The notes under the pieces were generated by a model. It saw nothing but the letters and a program-made list of their open reading frames with translations, did no database searches and was not told the DNA's origin. A program made the translations under genes and the position numbers. From Candidatus Shapirobacteria bacterium (GTDB taxonomy: Bacteria > Patescibacteriota > Microgenomatia > UBA12405), in NCBI GenBank assembly GCA_028704885.1, contig JAQWEN010000001.1:427999-491998 (forward strand): a DNA stretch of 64,000 nucleotides, in the 5' to 3' direction. The stretch's first letter is position 1. Every line of letters begins with the position of its first letter. Shown one piece after another: positions 45-16,357 of the stretch.

Positions 45-1013
45 TTATTTTTTGATTATTTTTTTAATATTGCAATATGTTTGCCACAATTTAAAATATT
101 TGGATAAAAAAATTTTATTTAATTTAATTTCGTCGTTGGAAATACTTCTGTTTATTTCTTCAATCTTTTTAATTAAATCTAAATTTTTTGATTGGTAGTA
201 AGATATCTCTTTATCTATTTCCTTATATATTTTTTCTAACTTTAGGTTTATTTCTGCTTTATAAGTTTGACAAACATTCAAATTAAATGTTTTATCGTAA
301 TAATGGGACCAGATGTCTGGAAAACAAAAAATATTATTTTGTTGAGGTTTTAGAAAGAGGACTCCAAGACCATGAGAATGGAAAAATTCTAGCGAAGAAT
401 ATTTGTTTTTCAGTTCATCCCAAAGTTTATAGACACCAAAGTCTTCTTTTTTTTCCGCAATATCATGAAACATGACAATACCATCTTTTTTTACCTTAGA
501 TATCCAATTATTAAAATCATGCCTAACTGCTTCGTAAGTGTGTAATCCGTCTATGTGTAATAAATCTATTGAATTGTCTTCAAATTCTAAAAGAGCATCG
601 TCAAAATATTTTTTAATTAAATTTATTTTTAGTGATTTATAAAATTTATCTTTTATTTCTTTAACTTCATTTAAAACAGTATTGTCATAAAATCCAGCTT
701 GTTTATCCCCTTCCCAACTATCGATTGCATATAAATTGCAGTCTAATTGCTCATCTTTTACTGCTTGGCACATAGAAAAGAAAGAAGTGCCTTTATGCGT
801 TCCTAATTCAACTATAGTTTTTGGTTTAATATTTCTAACTAAATCATAGGCAAAATATTTATGTCCTGCCCATGGCCAGTCTAAATCTGGAAAGATTGCT
901 TCATATTCAAATTTTGGATTATAAAACTCAAATTTTGTTAATATTTTTATATTATTGTCCATTTGAATATTTTTTAACTGCTGCGGTGGGGGTGGTGTCG
1001 CATTGAATTTCAT
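45..1013 (-). CDS. Class I SAM-dependent methyltransferase (Methyltransf_24-like) with a ~70-aa C-terminal coiled-coil-like tail
   Basis: Motifs IVELGTHKGTSFF (SAM-binding glycine-rich loop), AIDSWEGD and LLHIDGLHTYEAVRHDFNNW...DGIVMFHDI. The C-terminus EINLKLEKIYKEIDKEISYYQSKNLDLIKKIEEINRSISNDEIKLNKIF is heptad-like. It lies immediately downstream of wzt in the same operon. The first 17 aa overlap the wzt 3' end, and an internal ATG at 960-962 (MDNNIKIL) is an equally plausible start. Confidence 0.6.
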   Translation of the reverse strand: MKFNATPPPPQQLKNIQMDNNIKILTKFEFYNPKFEYEAIFPDLDWPWAGHKYFAYDLVRNIKPKTIVELGTHKGTSFFSMCQAVKDEQLDCNLYAIDSWEGDKQAGFYDNTVLNEVKEIKDKFYKSLKINLIKKYFDDALLEFEDNSIDLLHIDGLHTYEAVRHDFNNWISKVKKDGIVMFHDIAEKKEDFGVYKLWDELKNKYSSLEFFHSHGLGVLFLKPQQNNIFCFPDIWSHYYDKTFNLNVCQTYKAEINLKLEKIYKEIDKEISYYQSKNLDLIKKIEEINRSISNDEIKLNKIFLSKYFKLWQTYCNIKKIIKK

Positions 1014-1782
1014 GGTGGTTTAGATAGATGGCACGAGTGCAGAATTTTTCAACTTGGCCAAGGCTATGGGAAACAAAAATTATAGTAATATCTTTTGATT
1101 TTTTAAATTCTTCCATTTTGGCAAAACATTTTTCTTGGAAAGCAGAGTCACCTACCGCAAGAATTTCATCGACAATTAAAATTTCTGGATGAACGTGAAT
1201 AGCCACGGCAAAAGCCAGGCGCATATACATACCTGAAGAATAATGTTTGACTGGTTGGTCTATAAATTCCCAAAGTTCAGCAAAATCAACAATTGATTTG
1301 TAACTTTGATCGATTTCTTTGCGTTTAAGGCCAAGAATGGCACCATTTAGATAAATATTTTCTTTACCAGTTAGTTCTGGATGGAAACCGGCACCAAGCT
1401 CGATTAGAGGTGAGATTTTGCCCTTGACATATACTTTTCCACTAGTAGGCCACATAACACCGGCAATGAGCTTTAGAATAGTAGATTTACCACTGCCATT
1501 GGGGCCGATAATGCCAACCGTCTCCCCTTTTTTTATTTCAAAACTAATGTCATTTAGGGCCGTAAAACTTTCACTAGTTTTTTCGCCGCGAATTAGAGCG
1601 GGAAGAAATTCTTTGAAGGTTTTATGACTTAATTTGCTAAATTGTTTGGAAACATGATCAAATTTAATGACTATTTGATCTGGTTCGCTAGTACGCTGGT
1701 TCGCTAGTACGCTGGAACTTTGAAGTTTTGGTTCGCTAGTTCGCTGGTTCGCTGGAACTTTTGAACTCTGTTTATTGATCAT
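952..1782 (-). CDS. wzt: ABC transporter ATP-binding protein for a polysaccharide exporter (Wzt/TagH/KpsT-like), lacking a C-terminal carbohydrate-binding domain
   Basis: Walker A GIIGPNGSGKSTILKLIAG, the ABC signature YSSGMYMRLAFAVAI and Walker B ILIVDEILAVGD. It sits next to an ABC-2 permease. About 35 aa precede the usual N-terminal IVIKFDHVSKQF motif, and that extension is encoded by a tandem DNA repeat. Confidence 0.8.
   Translation of the reverse strand: MINKQSSKVPANQRTSEPKLQSSSVLANQRTSEPDQIVIKFDHVSKQFSKLSHKTFKEFLPALIRGEKTSESFTALNDISFEIKKGETVGIIGPNGSGKSTILKLIAGVMWPTSGKVYVKGKISPLIELGAGFHPELTGKENIYLNGAILGLKRKEIDQSYKSIVDFAELWEFIDQPVKHYSSGMYMRLAFAVAIHVHPEILIVDEILAVGDSAFQEKCFAKMEEFKKSKDITIIFVSHSLGQVEKFCTRAIYLNHHEIQCDTTPTAAVKKYSNGQ
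1681..1768. repeat. Degenerate tandem repeat with 16-nt periodicity (units tggttcgctagtacgc x2, tggaactttgaagttt, tggttcgctagttcgc, tggttcgc, tggaacttttgaactc), lying inside the 5' end of wzt
   Basis: Read directly from the sequence. It encodes the 48-nt-periodic peptide PANQRTSEP...ANQRTSEP in the Wzt N-terminal extension. A related copy lies at 2142-2170 on the other side of the four-helix-bundle gene. Confidence 0.7.
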
Positions 1783-2234: not shown

Positions 2235-3035
2235 CTAAATGTTATCGGCGAAGATTTTTTCGCGAGATTTAAAATAACGAAGACCAAATAAAAGAACAAC
2301 AAAGGAAAGAATAGTGGCAATTATGAGACTAGAATATTTTGGAACTCCACCGCTAAGAATAACTTGACGATAAGCATTAGTAATAACAGCCATAGGATTT
2401 AATTGAAAAATGATCTTATATTTTGCAGGAATCATGTCGGCTGAGTAAATTATCGGGGTGACATACATCCATAAAAGTAAAATCATAGATAATAAATATT
2501 GAACGTCGCGATAAAGAAGATTGGCAGCAGCAAAGAAAAGAGATAGACCGAGAGTGAAAATTTGTTGAATGAAAAAGATTGGAATAACCCAAAGAATATT
2601 AATATTTATGGGCATGTGATAGGCAATCATATAGATGATTAAAACTATGTTGGCAAAAAGGAAATCAATTATTTTGGCGATGATAGTGGAAATTACTAAT
2701 ATAGTTCGGGGAAAATAAATTTTAGTAATTAAACCACCGGCACTAACCAGAGAAGCAGAGGCAGAAGAAAGAGAATTGGAAAAAAGAGTCCACGGTAAGA
2801 GGGCGACAAAAAGAAATATAGAATAAGGAATGTGTCCCGAAGAATAAGTTGGAATGCGCATAATAATGGAAAAGGCAAAAGACATAACCAACATTTGGGC
2901 CAAAGGATTTAAAATTACCCAAAAATAACCAAGAATGGATTGTTTATAGCGGGCTTTAACTTCACGGCCAACCATCTGCCAAAGTAATTCGCGCCATTTA
3001 TGAATAGCTTGGATTTCTTTTATAAGCGATAACAT
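2235..3035 (-). CDS. wzm: ABC-2 type polysaccharide exporter permease (Wzm/TagG/KpsM-like)
   Basis: N-terminus WRELLWQMVGREVKARYKQSILGYFWVILNPLAQMLVMSFAFSII is the classic ABC-2 permease signature. The protein is 266 aa with about 6 TM segments and sits upstream of wzt. Confidence 0.8.
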   Translation of the reverse strand: MLSLIKEIQAIHKWRELLWQMVGREVKARYKQSILGYFWVILNPLAQMLVMSFAFSIIMRIPTYSSGHIPYSIFLFVALLPWTLFSNSLSSASASLVSAGGLITKIYFPRTILVISTIIAKIIDFLFANIVLIIYMIAYHMPININILWVIPIFFIQQIFTLGLSLFFAAANLLYRDVQYLLSMILLLWMYVTPIIYSADMIPAKYKIIFQLNPMAVITNAYRQVILSGGVPKYSSLIIATILSFVVLLFGLRYFKSREKIFADNI

Positions 3036-4236: not shown

Positions 4237-5214
4237 ATGAACAAAAATTTGAAGGTGTGTACGATTGGCGGTGGGTCGGGAATGCCAATTGTAAATAAGG
4301 CCTTAATTAGGGCAGGATTTGAAAATATTAAATCGATTGTGACGACTTTTGACAGTGGTGGAGATAGCGGAAGAATGAGGACAGATGAAAGAGGCAGAAT
4401 TTTAGCTTTTTCTGATTATTGGCGAGCCTTAATCTCTCTTTGGGATGATGGTAAACAAAAAGAAATTTGGACAGAGATGCTTCGATTTAGAGATGGTAGA
4501 GGCAGAAATTTTGGAAATATGTTTTTTCAATTTCTGTCAGAAAAAGAAGGAAAATTGTCCGATGTTGATTCGATGTTTGAGGCTTTAACTGGAGCTAAAT
4601 TAAAAGGGTCAGTAATACCAGTTTCAACAGATTCGGCTAATTTTTGTTTTAAGACAATAAGCGGTAAAGAATATTGCGGAGAACATAATTTAGATGATTT
4701 AAGAATGTCATTAGATAAAGTGGACGATATTTGGTTAACACCAGAAGTTAAAGCAAATAAAGAAGCGATTGATTCTATAATTGAGGCGGATGTAATTATT
4801 GTTTGTCCAGGAAGTATGTATGGATCAATTTTAATTAATTTTTTGCCACAAGGCATGATTGAGGCTTATAAAAAAAGTAAAGCTAAAAAAATATTGATGA
4901 CTAATATTTCATCAGTGGCTAATGAAAACGATGATTTTAATCAAGATGATTATGTGGCCACTTTTGAAAAGTATTTAAAAACCAAATCCCCTTTTGATTT
5001 GATTTTGATGGCTGATATGGACTGTTTGGATCAAACTTTATTAAAAAAAGTTTTAAAACTTTATGCTTTAGAACATTCTTTTCCGATTAAATTTAATAAG
5101 AAAAGCAAGGAAAAAACAGTAATGGTTGATATTGTTAAAATTGAGGAAAAAAATATGAGATTAAGACATAGTGAGGAGAAATTAAGAGAGGTATTTAGAA
5201 CACTGAAACTCTAA
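4237..5214 (+). CDS. yvcK: YvcK/UPF0052 family protein (gluconeogenesis-factor / CofD-like UDP-sugar-binding protein)
   Basis: VCTIGGGSGMPIVNKALIRAGF...IVTTFDSGGDSGRMR matches B. subtilis YvcK VVFGGGTGL...IVTVADDGGSSGRLR, and IIVCPGSMYGSILINFLPQG matches IVIGPGSLYTSVLPNLLVPG. The protein is 325 aa. Confidence 0.75.
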   Translation: MNKNLKVCTIGGGSGMPIVNKALIRAGFENIKSIVTTFDSGGDSGRMRTDERGRILAFSDYWRALISLWDDGKQKEIWTEMLRFRDGRGRNFGNMFFQFLSEKEGKLSDVDSMFEALTGAKLKGSVIPVSTDSANFCFKTISGKEYCGEHNLDDLRMSLDKVDDIWLTPEVKANKEAIDSIIEADVIIVCPGSMYGSILINFLPQGMIEAYKKSKAKKILMTNISSVANENDDFNQDDYVATFEKYLKTKSPFDLILMADMDCLDQTLLKKVLKLYALEHSFPIKFNKKSKEKTVMVDIVKIEEKNMRLRHSEEKLREVFRTLKL

Positions 5215-5218
5215 AACG

Positions 5219-5262
5219 AAACCCACTCCTAAATCCCCTCCCTTGAGGAAATGAGGGGACTT
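5219..5262. other. GC-rich structured intergenic element E2 (AAACCCACTC ... CCCCTC / GAGGGG 6-bp stem ... ACTT), related to E1
   Basis: Stem 5235-5240 pairs with 5253-5258. It lies between yvcK and the TMTC-like gene and shares its 5' decamer and stem chemistry with 3075-3141. Confidence 0.35.
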
Positions 5263-7018
5263 GGTAAAATCAAATATGTCACAGAAAAAACTTAAGAAAT
5301 TAAGAAAATTGGAAGCTGTAAATTTAGTAAAAGAAGTAATTTTGGAGCCGGTTGCGGGTTTTAGGCAAATTATTAAAGAAAATTGGAAATTTTTATTAGC
5401 CTTGATAGTTGGTGTTTTTATATTGTACTTAAATAGTTTGCATGGAGACTTTGTTTCTGATGATTATGCTTCGATAACTCAATATGCTGATATTAAAAAT
5501 CTTTCTGTTGTATTGAAAAAGCCAAATTTACCAGGATTTACTAATAGTGTTTTGGCAATAATATTTGGAATTACTAGCTCTTTTCCTTATCACTTAACTA
5601 ATTTAATTTTATATTTATTGATTTTAATAGTGGCTTTTGTTTTTGTTTTTTTAATAACAAGAAACAAAATAACATCAATGTTAACTTTGGTTTTATATGC
5701 GGTTTTACCTGTTCATGCAGAAACAATTTCATGGATTTCTGGAAGACCTTATCTATTTGTTGCTTTGTTTGTTCTTTTGTCCTTGGATTTGTTAATTTTG
5801 TTTTTAAATAAAAAACAACCTAAATATTTATGGCTAATGTTACCGACTCTAATTCTATTATTTTTGACAGATAGAATTAGAGGGTTTGCAATTGTAATTT
5901 TGTCAGTTTTATATTTCTTGACGTATAAAAATGAACTTGGTTATAAATTTAAAATAGGTAAAATTTTAATTGCAGCAATAGTGGTGACGGTAACCCTAGC
6001 GATTATTTCCTGGCCAATGATTCAGGCCAGAATTGGAGATGTTAATAGTGGTTATAACGGTTCTGAAAGTGTTTTTTATAATCCATTTTTCCAATATCCA
6101 ACTTCAATAGCTAAATATTTGCAAATAATGCTTTTTCCGGTTGATATGACTTTGTATCATACGATGTATATTTTGCCGGTTTGGTTAAATTGGATGATAC
6201 TTTTGACATTTTTAGCTTCGATTGGATATTTTTTCTTTAAAGATAAAAAAATGTTTTTTGCTTTAGCATTTATATTTTTAGCAGCGGCACCATCAATGGC
6301 GCCAGTAAAAGTTAGTTGGCTGGTAGCGGAAAGATATGTATTACTTGGAAGTTTAGGTCTTTGTTTATTTTTAATATTATTTTTTCAAAGATTTGATAAA
6401 AAATGGAAAATTCCATTTTTGATTTTATTTGTAATTTTTACTGGACTATATTCTGCAAGAGTTTATCTAAGAAACATAGATTGGAAAACAAATCACAACT
6501 TGTGGGTTAGTACTTGTCAGTATTCACCAAATAGTCATAATGCTTGGAATAATATTGGGGATGATTACGATAAATTGGCTCAATTAGAAACAACTCCTGA
6601 AGGACAAATGAATCAATATTTGAATTCAATTAAAGGTTTTACTAGATCGACAATTGTTAAAACTAATTATGCTGATGCTTTTCATAATAGAGCTAACATT
6701 TTTTACAAAATAGGAAGATATGATTTGGCTAGAGATAGTTATGAAACTGCTCTTTATTATGGACCAAATCTTTATCAAAGTTATTTTAGTCTTTTACAAA
6801 TCGATTTGAGTGAAAAAAGATATGATTTGGCGATGGATCATTTAAATAAATTACATAAGGCTAAACCAAATGATATTCAGGTTTATTATGTGACGGCAGT
6901 AGTATATGCGAATGCTGGAATGAAAGATGAAGCTAAAAAATTATTGACACAAATATTACAAGCCTACCCTGAATTTCAACAAGCAAAAGATTTGTTAGAT
7001 CAGTTAAATAAAATGTGA
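5261..7018 (+). CDS. TMTC-like GT-C membrane glycosyltransferase (DD-motif N-terminal membrane domain plus C-terminal TPR repeats)
   Basis: GDFVSDDYASITQYADIKN follows TM1 and matches the TMTC/DUF1736 DF..DD motif. About 10 TM helices are followed by TPR-like repeats (YYKIGRYDLARDSYETALYYGPN..., AVVYANAGMKDEAKKLL). The track start is TTG 5261, and ATG 5276 (MSQKKLKK) is more plausible. Confidence 0.6.
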   Translation: MVKSNMSQKKLKKLRKLEAVNLVKEVILEPVAGFRQIIKENWKFLLALIVGVFILYLNSLHGDFVSDDYASITQYADIKNLSVVLKKPNLPGFTNSVLAIIFGITSSFPYHLTNLILYLLILIVAFVFVFLITRNKITSMLTLVLYAVLPVHAETISWISGRPYLFVALFVLLSLDLLILFLNKKQPKYLWLMLPTLILLFLTDRIRGFAIVILSVLYFLTYKNELGYKFKIGKILIAAIVVTVTLAIISWPMIQARIGDVNSGYNGSESVFYNPFFQYPTSIAKYLQIMLFPVDMTLYHTMYILPVWLNWMILLTFLASIGYFFFKDKKMFFALAFIFLAAAPSMAPVKVSWLVAERYVLLGSLGLCLFLILFFQRFDKKWKIPFLILFVIFTGLYSARVYLRNIDWKTNHNLWVSTCQYSPNSHNAWNNIGDDYDKLAQLETTPEGQMNQYLNSIKGFTRSTIVKTNYADAFHNRANIFYKIGRYDLARDSYETALYYGPNLYQSYFSLLQIDLSEKRYDLAMDHLNKLHKAKPNDIQVYYVTAVVYANAGMKDEAKKLLTQILQAYPEFQQAKDLLDQLNKM

Positions 7019-8178
7019 AGATCTTATTTATAGAGCCGTGTTATTTTAATTTTGGGGGTTATTTTAGAGCAATTAATATCTGTACGGCACTTTCAAAAAA
7101 AGGATTTTCTATTGATCTTTTGTTGCCTTCGGATAAAAAATTTTTTTGGAAAATCAGAAAAACAAAAATTAATGAAAATTTGACAATGTATGAATTGCCA
7201 AGATTTTATATAAATTTTTTTGTTCAAGGGCGAATTTTAAGAGGATTTATTGCTACTTTGTTTGGAATTTTTAAAAAATATGATATTGTCCATGCAGCCA
7301 TGCCAGTGGAATTTGAATCGAATATTCCAGCTTTAATATTGAAAATTTTTGGTAAAAAGATTGTGATGGATTGGGACGATAGATTTGAAGACGGGGTTTT
7401 TAGTGGAAATAAAATTTTACATATGTATTTGCGTCTTTGTGAACATGGAATGCCTAAAATAATTAAAAATTATTGTGTGGCTAATGATGTTTTGGGTGAT
7501 TTAGCTAAAGAATATGGAGCTAATAATATAATTAGTATTATTAATGGAGTTAACCTTGATCAGGTTAAAGTTTTGGATAAAAAACAATCGAGAAAGAAAT
7601 TGGAATTAGACAATGAAACTAAATATCTGTTGACTTTTGGGAATACTTTTTCTGAAGAAAGAATTTTTTTATTATTTAAAACTTTGAATTATATTTTTAG
7701 TTTAGATAAAAACACAAAAATAATTTGTACTCTTAATCCTAATAAAATATTGGAAAATAAAAAAATAAAAAAGTTTTTTAATTCAAAATATCTAGATAGA
7801 TTTATAAATGTGAATTATATTCAACCAAATGATTTAGGATTATACTTATCGGCTTGTGATGCTAGTGTTTTTATTGCTGGCGATGATCCGAAAGAAAAAG
7901 TTTGTTTTCCAATAAGAATTGGAACTTATTTATGCGGTGAAACAATAATTGTAATGAATGATGTCAATTCTGAAGTGAATAAAATTTTAGATAAATATAA
8001 ATGCATGGTAATAGATAAAGATTTGGAAAAATTAGCAGCTAAAACAGTAAAAATGCTTTATTCCCCTACGATTCAAAGTGATTTAAAAAAGAAGGTAAAA
8101 TTGGCAAAAAAAGAATTATCTTATGATAATTTAGTGGCAGATTTAATTGGTTACTATCAAAAAATATTAAATGATTAA
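7015..8178 (+). CDS. GT-B fold glycosyltransferase (divergent GT4-like)
   Basis: N-terminus MKILFIEPCYFNFGGYFRAINICTALSKKGF is Rossmann-like, and a C-terminal FPIRIGTYLCGETIIVMND nucleotide-sugar-binding-like segment is present. A GTG start overlaps the previous stop. The call is weak. Confidence 0.4.
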   Translation: MKILFIEPCYFNFGGYFRAINICTALSKKGFSIDLLLPSDKKFFWKIRKTKINENLTMYELPRFYINFFVQGRILRGFIATLFGIFKKYDIVHAAMPVEFESNIPALILKIFGKKIVMDWDDRFEDGVFSGNKILHMYLRLCEHGMPKIIKNYCVANDVLGDLAKEYGANNIISIINGVNLDQVKVLDKKQSRKKLELDNETKYLLTFGNTFSEERIFLLFKTLNYIFSLDKNTKIICTLNPNKILENKKIKKFFNSKYLDRFINVNYIQPNDLGLYLSACDASVFIAGDDPKEKVCFPIRIGTYLCGETIIVMNDVNSEVNKILDKYKCMVIDKDLEKLAAKTVKMLYSPTIQSDLKKKVKLAKKELSYDNLVADLIGYYQKILND

Positions 8179-8956
8179 AGAAACAACAGTTAGTGAATTA
8201 AAAAAGATCTGGAATAAATATAATGACTATTCTGAATTAGATGGATTATTAAAAAATCTTAGAGAGAATGATGGAAAGGAAATTAAAGATTGGTTACATT
8301 TGCCGATTCATTTGCCGTTTATTAAAAAAGAATTAAAAGGTTTAAGTAAAAATGCCAAAGTATTAGAGGCTGGCTGTGGTTTTGGTCATTGGGTTTTTTG
8401 GATGGCAGAGCAAGGTTATCAAGCTGTGGGTGTTGACTTGGCTCCTAAGGCCATTATTACGGCTAAAAATTATGCTAAAAAAAATAATCTTAAAAATTGT
8501 GAATTTATTGAGGGCGATATTCGTAAATTACCAATAAAAGATAATTATTTTGATATTATTTTTAGTTTTGGAGTTATTGAGCATTTTCATAATCCAGAAA
8601 TTATTTTAGATGAATTAAAAAGGGTGTTGAAACCAGGTGGAAAGATATTTTTTAGTGTACCTAATCAATATTCTTTCCATACATTAACGAGAATAATTTT
8701 AAAAGGAATCGGTAAATGGCATTTAGGTTATGAACGCTCATATAGTTCTAAATCATTAAATATATTATTTAGGAAATGCGGATTTGAAGTTTTAAGAGGC
8801 GGAATAATGCCTGGAGGTGAATTGTTTGGAAGAGGGATGAATAATATTCCCTTGATTGGTGATTTTCTGTTTAAATTATTTTCGAAAATAAGTTTTTATA
8901 TAGAAAATCATCAAAAAATTTTTGGTTTTTGGCTTTATGGAGTGGCAAAAAAATAA
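8171..8956 (+). CDS. Class I SAM-dependent methyltransferase (Methyltransf_11/23-like)
   Basis: VLEAGCGFGHWVFWMAEQGYQAVGVDLAP (motif I), FDIIFSFGVIEHF and LKPGGKIFFSVPN. Confidence 0.75.
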   Translation: MIKETTVSELKKIWNKYNDYSELDGLLKNLRENDGKEIKDWLHLPIHLPFIKKELKGLSKNAKVLEAGCGFGHWVFWMAEQGYQAVGVDLAPKAIITAKNYAKKNNLKNCEFIEGDIRKLPIKDNYFDIIFSFGVIEHFHNPEIILDELKRVLKPGGKIFFSVPNQYSFHTLTRIILKGIGKWHLGYERSYSSKSLNILFRKCGFEVLRGGIMPGGELFGRGMNNIPLIGDFLFKLFSKISFYIENHQKIFGFWLYGVAKK

Positions 8957-9780
8957 AAAAAATGAAAAATATAAAAACGAGAAAACAAAAATGGCTCGAT
9001 GCCCAAAAGGGAGAATTAAAGTCTTGGACTATCGGGGATTTAGATTGTAAGGGTTTAATTAACTCATGGAAAAATAGAATTAATAATTATAAAATTGATT
9101 TTTCTGATTTTAAAGTTTCTACAAAAATTTTAGATGTTGGTTGTGGTCCGGTATCAATATTGGAAATATTGCCTAAATCAAAAACAATGATAGCTACAGA
9201 TTCTTTGAATGATAAATATCAAAAATATTTTTTTAGAAAAAATACTAATATTGAATATAAAAATTTTGCTGCCGAGAATATTCCTTATAAAAATAATTAT
9301 TTTGATGTTATTTTCTGCCTTAATGCATTTGATCATTTAGAAAAGCCATTTGTGGCTTTAAGCGAAATGTTAAGAGTATTAAAGACAAGTGGTCGTATTT
9401 ATGTTGAATTTGAAAATACTTCTCCTATGGTTAAATTTTTAAGTAGATTTGGTTATAAAAAACCATTAAGTCAGTTTCATCCACATTTACTTAGTTTAGA
9501 TAATATTGAAAAATATATTAAAAAGAACCATCAAAATGTCAATATAGAAATAATAGATTTAAAGCCAGAATTTAATTTTAATAAAATTATTTATCTTATA
9601 GAAATAATTTTAAGAAAGAAAAAAATGACTAAAAGTGAGACAAATATAAGTGCAATAAGTGCTGGTCCTTTAAGATTTTTTTTCCATTATATAATAATCG
9701 TAATCGAAAGGTTATTTTTTATTTTTAATCCTAAAAAGTATTCGTATTTTAATATTATAGTATTAAAAAAAATAAAATAA
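8929..9780 (+). CDS. Class I SAM-dependent methyltransferase
   Basis: ILDVGCGPVSILEILP, FDVIFCLNAFDHLEKP and LKTSGRIYVE. The C-terminal ~80 aa of this ORF may be read-through and not part of the protein. Confidence 0.7.
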   Translation: MALWSGKKIKKMKNIKTRKQKWLDAQKGELKSWTIGDLDCKGLINSWKNRINNYKIDFSDFKVSTKILDVGCGPVSILEILPKSKTMIATDSLNDKYQKYFFRKNTNIEYKNFAAENIPYKNNYFDVIFCLNAFDHLEKPFVALSEMLRVLKTSGRIYVEFENTSPMVKFLSRFGYKKPLSQFHPHLLSLDNIEKYIKKNHQNVNIEIIDLKPEFNFNKIIYLIEIILRKKKMTKSETNISAISAGPLRFFFHYIIIVIERLFFIFNPKKYSYFNIIVLKKIK

Positions 9781-15388: not shown

Positions 15389-16357
15389 TTAAATTTTTTG
15401 TTGACCAGAATAAAAACCCTTACACGAAAAATATAAACTAATAAATAACAAATAAATATTAATTAATGGTAATAATATGACTATTGGTTTTTTGATGCAA
15501 TAAATTAGAGTATTTTTAGTATAAAGAAATGAATAAATTATAATTAAAATTAAAAAAAACAATCTTATATATGGAAACAATAAGCCAATGAGTAGAATTT
15601 CTCGAAAAAAGGTACGAATAAAATGTTTTATATTTAAAATGCCATATTTTTTTAGTAAAGCTCCTTGAGCTTCGGAGTATTGGGCTTGTTTATAAATGAT
15701 TTTTTTGTAATTAAAAGTATCTTCTTGATTATGAATATGAAGTATAGTTGCTTTAGTAGAAACTACTTGGCCGATTTTGTTAAGTTTTAAAAAAATATCC
15801 CCATCTTCACCAGCTCGAAAAAAAATTTTATTATCGAAAAGACCAATTTTAATTAATTCTTTTCGTCGATAACAATCAAATTTACCGTCCATAGCCGATT
15901 GAAGTTTTTTTAATTGCCTGTCGAAAAAAACTTTTTGCCAAAAATTATATTTTTTCCAGATTTTAAATGGATGAATTACTTGATGGTAGCTGGCGATAAT
16001 TTTTTTTTGAGAAAAAGGGGCGACTAAAAGAGATATAGCATTCTTTTGAAGAATTACATCTGAGTGCAAGGTAATGACCAAATCCCCTTTTGAATTTAAA
16101 ATTCCATCATTGTATGAAGCAGATAAACCGATAGATTTGGAATGGTTAATTATATTTTTTTTAATTTTAGTAAAATGTTTTTTAAAATAGGTTTTTATTA
16201 TGGATAAAGATTTATCAGTAGAACCATCATTGATGATGATTATTTCATAAATTAGTTTTTGTTGAGTTGATAGACTCTTTAGAGTATTAAGAATAGTTGA
16301 TTGAGCGTTGTAGACAGGAATTATTATTGAAATCTTGTTCATGTTAATTTTGCCCAA
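15389..16357 (-). CDS. Glycosyltransferase family 2 with a C-terminal membrane anchor
   Basis: ISIIIPVYNAQSTILNTLKSL...YEIIIINDGSTDKS and a hydrophobic C-terminus. Confidence 0.75.
   Translation of the reverse strand: MGKINMNKISIIIPVYNAQSTILNTLKSLSTQQKLIYEIIIINDGSTDKSLSIIKTYFKKHFTKIKKNIINHSKSIGLSASYNDGILNSKGDLVITLHSDVILQKNAISLLVAPFSQKKIIASYHQVIHPFKIWKKYNFWQKVFFDRQLKKLQSAMDGKFDCYRRKELIKIGLFDNKIFFRAGEDGDIFLKLNKIGQVVSTKATILHIHNQEDTFNYKKIIYKQAQYSEAQGALLKKYGILNIKHFIRTFFREILLIGLLFPYIRLFFLILIIIYSFLYTKNTLIYCIKKPIVILLPLINIYLLFISLYFSCKGFYSGQQKI

Follow-up and report, generated by a model that had tools for sequence, protein, structure and literature searches.

What does the ORF at positions 5261–7018 encode in the 64,000-nt stretch of Candidatus Shapirobacteria DNA analyzed here (the window), and what would its product act on? 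The NCBI name of the product (P0001) is only "tetratricopeptide repeat protein"; its orthologs carry the JGI name "protein O-mannosyl-transferase", which is an automatic annotation. TMTC1–4 of animals are protein O-mannosyltransferases for cadherins and protocadherins, and the original prediction, made from the letters of the window, was that the ORF encodes a bacterial counterpart with a GT-C membrane domain and C-terminal TPRs. We find that a TMTC-type membrane glycosyltransferase with TPRs is the best explanation for this ORF, and we give this reading a probability of about 0.5. By homology, the product is related to the TMTC protein O-mannosyltransferases of animals but compact: a predicted sugar-transferring membrane domain is fused to a short TPR domain. 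Its gene lies in an island of genes for cell-surface glycans. The family to which it belongs is very large in bacteria, and its membership is solid but not surprising; the membrane domain alone matches 9,852 representative clusters at E ≤ 1e-3.

The ORF lies at exactly 5261–7018 on the + strand and encodes 585 aa, and the predicted motif GDFVSDDYASI is present behind the first TM helix, at residues 62–72. The ORF listing of the window begins at a TTG (5261), and the NCBI protein, which is 100% identical and 580 aa long, begins at M6, that is, at ATG 5276. M6-S7-Q8 is the conserved N-terminus among relatives, and on the basis of these homologs ATG 5276 is the more likely start; Shine-Dalgarno-like GAGGA/GAGGGG sequences do not separate the two codons. 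The features discussed in the following are collected in table 1.

Table 1. Features in and around the TMTC-like gene, in window coordinates; residues are counted from the TTG codon.
Feature	Position	Strand	Basis and remarks
ABC exporter ATPase (Wzt-like)	952..1782	-	PF00005
ABC-2 (Wzm-like) exporter permease	2235..3035	-	PF01061
yvcK/CofD-family gene	4237..5214	+	PF01933, 134.6 bits; TIGR01826 (YvcK), 157.5 bits, below the 196-bit cutoff
TMTC-like GT-C glycosyltransferase gene (predicted)	5261..7018	+	ORF; 580 aa more likely, from ATG 5276
Membrane GT-C catalytic domain (putative)	5384..6472	+	Residues 42–404; 11 predicted TM helices
EL1 motif GDFVSDDYASI	5444..5476	+	Residues 62–72, directly after TM1 (42–61)
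D67-D68, putative catalytic residues	5459–5464	+	Aligned to TMTC GEFVHDD
End of TM3 and EL2 motif AVLPVHAETISWISGRPY	5699..5752	+	Residues 147–164; counterpart of TMTC AVHPIHTEAVxGxVGRAD
Long outside loop EL4 (predicted)	6008..6178	+	Residues 250–306; counterpart of the TMTC DUF1736 loop; NP...YL...FPxxxTLYH
VAERY in EL5, before TM10	6323..6337	+	Residues 355–359; R358 is a putative donor-phosphate ligand
Outside linker (RNIDWKTNHNLW...), four TPRs, and capping helix (predicted)	6473..7015	+	Residues 405–585; TPR helices 426–584
Weakly GT4-like gene	7015–8178	+	PF13439, 24.4 bits vs. 28.5-bit cutoff
Clear SAM methyltransferases	8171–8956, 8929–9780	+	Pfam
GT2 with two C-terminal hydrophobic helices (GtrB/DPM1-like layout)	15389..16357	-	PF00535; segments 256–274 and 283–312

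Homology to the TMTCs was assessed with a family HMM of 140 members of the bacterial family and with 12 TMTC sequences transcribed from the supplement of PMC7801869. The family HMM matches the N-domains of all 12 animal TMTCs (TMTC1–4) end to end with E values from 1e-41 to 2e-28, covering HMM positions 21–384 and, in TMTC3, residues 2–422, and hhalign of the bacterial family against TMTC gives a probability of 100% (E = 1.6e-40). Reciprocally, an animal-TMTC HMM picks only ORF 5261–7018 in the window (E = 8.9e-11). The PMT/PMT_2-type GT-C genes of the window are only marginally related to the family HMM (E ≥ 0.002), and ArnT does not match it. The original prediction of a TMTC-like protein is supported by these comparisons. 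Neither PF02366 (PMT) nor the MIR domain matches the product. The DUF1736 model (PF08409), which represents the TM7–TM8 loop of TMTCs with its DW motif and was proposed as a probe for the family, does not match either: neither DUF1736 nor PMT nor PMT_2, nor any other GT-C model, was matched in Pfam by the whole protein or by the membrane domain at E ≤ 10, and DUF1736 was absent from the 25 families that 42 relatives match most often and was not matched by 10 distant relatives. Some distant relatives match PMT_2, below threshold or barely above it; P0129 reaches 30.4 bits where the cutoff is 26.1 bits. A DUF4131 match (E = 0.022) was discarded as noise. In PDB, both the single protein and a membrane-domain profile of 17 members found only TPR proteins by sequence, TPR matches dominated the Foldseek search with the full model, and no solved TMTC structure appeared in the sequence or fold searches of the PDB copy used.

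The predicted TM helices 1–6 span residues 42–61, 108–133, 136–147, 159–184, 188–203, and 207–226, and helices 7–11 span residues 232–249, 307–327, 329–346, 363–376, and 380–404. Because of these 11 helices and the K/R charge bias, the DD motif and the TPRs are predicted to lie outside the cell; a cytoplasmic DD motif, which would have spoken against a TMTC-like enzyme, is not what the topology suggests. The predicted GT-C membrane fold and the acidic motif in EL1 place the product in the GT-C fold superfamily. The C-terminal TPR array that had been proposed is recovered by Pfam, in which TPR_1, TPR_2, TPR_19, and related models score above cutoff at residues 469–583, and by the AlphaFold model with its four helix-pair repeats and capping helix at residues 426–584.

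D67 and D68 align with TMTC1 D52/D53 in both hhalign and hmmalign and are present in 139 and 140, respectively, of 140 diverse bacterial members and in 12/12 TMTCs. With this conservation and the 9,852 matched clusters, the motif and the architecture are far beyond chance. In the EL2 motif, P150 (138/140) and E154 (139/140) are common to the 12 TMTCs as well, and H152 is variable among bacterial members. EL4 is placed by hhalign and hmmalign opposite TMTC DNP...YL...LLxPxxLxxDW, and its P293 is invariant in both sets (140/140 and 12/12). A356, E357, and R358 of EL5 are found in 136, 134, and 140 of the 140 members and all in 12/12 TMTCs. R358 corresponds to R404 in AERV of TMTC1, a residue assigned to phosphate binding of the lipid-linked sugar (PMC7801869), and by this analogy it is a putative ligand of the donor phosphate. 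Residues 404–439, around the start of the TPR region, form an invariant segment.

The bacterial protein resembles TMTC1–4 (CAZy GT105) over the full length of the membrane domain, in its 11 TM helices, cytoplasmic N-terminus, and non-cytoplasmic TPRs, all predicted here, and in a series of shared motifs: FVxDD, P(Y/F)HxxN, AVxPxxxE...G, the P of EL4 LxxPxxL, PxxPxx...VAER, and RN after TM11. It has four TPRs and 580–585 aa, whereas the animal TMTCs are much longer and have longer TPR arrays. In place of the dolichyl-P-mannose of TMTCs, it would use a sugar on bacterial polyprenyl (undecaprenyl) phosphate. The bacterial family is also without the roughly 15–20-residue EL1 insert NDFWG...SHKSYRP of TMTCs, of which SHKSYRP carries TMTC1 H89/K90 and the TMTC3 H67 disease site. 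Moreover, bacterial members have a Tyr (Y164, 131/140) where TMTCs have D/E, the acid of GRAD (D169 in TMTC1), Y299-H300 where TMTCs have D-W in EL4, and W158 (140/140) where TMTCs have Gly. SHKSYRP, the GRAD acid, and the EL4 DW have been tied to TMTC ligand binding (PMC7801869); with these three ligand-linked features absent or changed, the acceptor chemistry of the bacterial family may therefore differ from that of TMTCs.

TfpW of Pseudomonas aeruginosa is a pilin O-arabinofuranosyltransferase and hence an enzyme with a protein acceptor. [quoted passage not shown] The architecture predicted for the ORF 5261–7018 product is the same; however, tfpW lies directly downstream of pilA, whereas ORF 5261–7018 has yvcK on one side, a glycan cluster on the other, and no pilin gene adjoining. 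TMEM260 is a protein O-mannosyltransferase with a GT-C domain, 11 TM helices, a TPR-containing C-terminal region, and reported distant bacterial homologs, and it is reported to have no significant sequence similarity to the TMTCs (PMC10214176); by sequence, the product studied here is clearly on the TMTC side. PMT/POMT (GT39) have a MIR domain and a DE motif instead of the TPR domain and DD motif, and ArnT (GT83) and the other GT-Cs of three-component systems are not known to have a TPR domain and have lipid A or polymers as acceptors.

What the acceptor might be is a question on which the gene neighborhood bears. We compared related loci from 74 Patescibacteria genomes, which represent the orthologous Patescibacteria subfamily only. 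The most conserved neighbor is the ABC-2 permease, upstream in 40/43 related loci; its Wzt-like ATPase is upstream in 29/37, and yvcK is directly upstream on the same strand in 38/57 loci with a median gap of 17 nt. Here and in relatives, the gene has the exporter on one side and, on the other, a large group of genes for GT2 and GT4 enzymes, epimerases, radical-SAM proteins, and methyltransferases. Of the neighbors named in the original prediction, yvcK and the methyltransferases are confirmed; the GT4 is only weakly recognizable, and the downstream GT4/methyltransferase arrangement is not conserved, since a same-strand GT4 homolog is downstream in 0/64 related loci. Neither a pilin, an S-layer protein, nor any other candidate acceptor protein is encoded next to ORF 5261–7018.

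The conserved polysaccharide-type ABC-2 exporter is as compatible with a glycan acceptor as with a protein acceptor. It is possible, though we consider it rather unlikely, that the product is a glycan-decorating GT-C like ArnT, GtrII, YfhO, or the GacL-type enzymes of three-component systems. Once Wzm/Wzt had exported a polysaccharide or a teichoic-acid-like polymer, the enzyme would add one sugar to it, with a polyprenyl-phosphate sugar as the donor, and the TPRs would bind the polymer or a partner protein. The exporter genes, the position of the gene between them and the glycan cluster, and the change of the TMTC acceptor-side residues (the D169 equivalent and DW) are all in keeping with this, as is the established use of GT-Cs in multi-component transmembrane systems that glycosylate Gram-positive wall polymers or add pentofuranoses (PMC8035078 and PMC11127046). 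The GT2 with C-terminal TM helices also fits. This GT2 is, speculatively, a candidate for the synthase of the polyprenyl-phosphate sugar that the enzyme would need as donor; it has a weak partial ArnC match (E = 3e-11) far below the cutoff, and for four GT2 genes NCBIfam gave nothing beyond generic sub-threshold GT2 matches, with no firm synthase of this kind among them. Against a glycan acceptor, the TMTCs, which are the closest sequence relatives with known function, act on proteins, TPR arrays are carried by protein-directed enzymes (TMTC, OGT, and TfpW), and no gene for a GtrA-type flippase was recognized beside this one. The glycan-modifying GT-Cs (ArnT, GtrII, YfhO, and GacL-type) are not known to carry C-terminal TPR arrays.

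Transfer en bloc is improbable in our estimate. The enzyme would then be an oligosaccharyltransferase or ligase. After export by Wzm/Wzt, it would take the completed glycan off undecaprenyl-diphosphate and attach it to the cell wall or a surface protein, the step taken elsewhere by WsaB/PglL-type or LCP enzymes; a dual role has been proposed for TfpW. The homology points instead to TMTCs, which are thought to use a single, monophosphate-linked mannose (PMC7801869), and the window has a Wzx-like flippase and at least ten further GT-C-like genes that could serve, the absence of other ligases being judged within these 64 kb only. An extended proposal, to which we likewise give little credence, is that Shapirobacteria and related Patescibacteria have an ABC-transporter-dependent surface-glycan pathway whose terminal transferase, so far missing, is the TMTC-like enzyme. 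This enzyme would accept, or prime, the heavily modified Wzm/Wzt-exported glycan and attach it to surface proteins, and YvcK would couple this attachment step to the UDP-sugar supply. If this were true, a bacterial TMTC would act as an oligosaccharyltransferase, and the eukaryotic TMTC family would have had its original function in prokaryotic surface-protein glycosylation.

A non-catalytic TPR membrane scaffold or a Wzy/O-antigen-polymerase-like protein, suggested by the NCBI name, by weak matches to the oligosaccharide repeat-unit polymerase model TIGR04370 (NCBIfam, E = 0.003, 16.6 bits against a 40-bit cutoff) and Wzy_C_2 (E = 0.065), and by the existence of inactive GT-C clan members such as PIG-U (PMC7801869), is very improbable, as the catalytic and phosphate-binding residues of active GT-Cs are near-invariant over 140 diverse members, both weak matches are far below cutoff and the second falls on the TPR region only, and the predicted fold and the homology are those of GT-C/TMTC.

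Prokaryotic TMTC homologs are already known: the literature mentions them, KEGG-style and CAZy-style annotation assigns them automatically, and bacterial GT105 calls exist (PMC11166690). The view that they are poorly characterized agrees with our finding no functional study of a bacterial TMTC homolog in the searched literature. For this reason, and because PDB searches returned no solved TMTC structure, bacterial homologs of about 580 aa with four TPRs could be tractable models for the mechanism and structure of a family that underlies cadherin O-mannosylation and TMTC3-linked cobblestone lissencephaly. The family-specific substitutions W158, Y164, Y299-H300, and Y359 mark positions at which the divergence of acceptor specificity between bacterial and animal enzymes could be probed. 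In episymbiotic CPR/Patescibacteria, to whose lifestyle the cell surface is central, the gene marks a conserved surface-glycosylation locus.

In the window, the TMTC-like gene is probably cotranscribed with the genes downstream of it (7015..9780): the GTG start of the GT4-like gene overlaps the TMTC-like stop codon in GTGA. No terminator-like sites were found between 3900 and 10000, and promoter-like sites occur at the shuffled-background rate; these scans offer nothing against cotranscription. The 46-nt spacer between yvcK and the TMTC-like gene contains a potential hairpin, CCCCTC...GAGGGG, whose folding energy is ordinary (z = -0.77).

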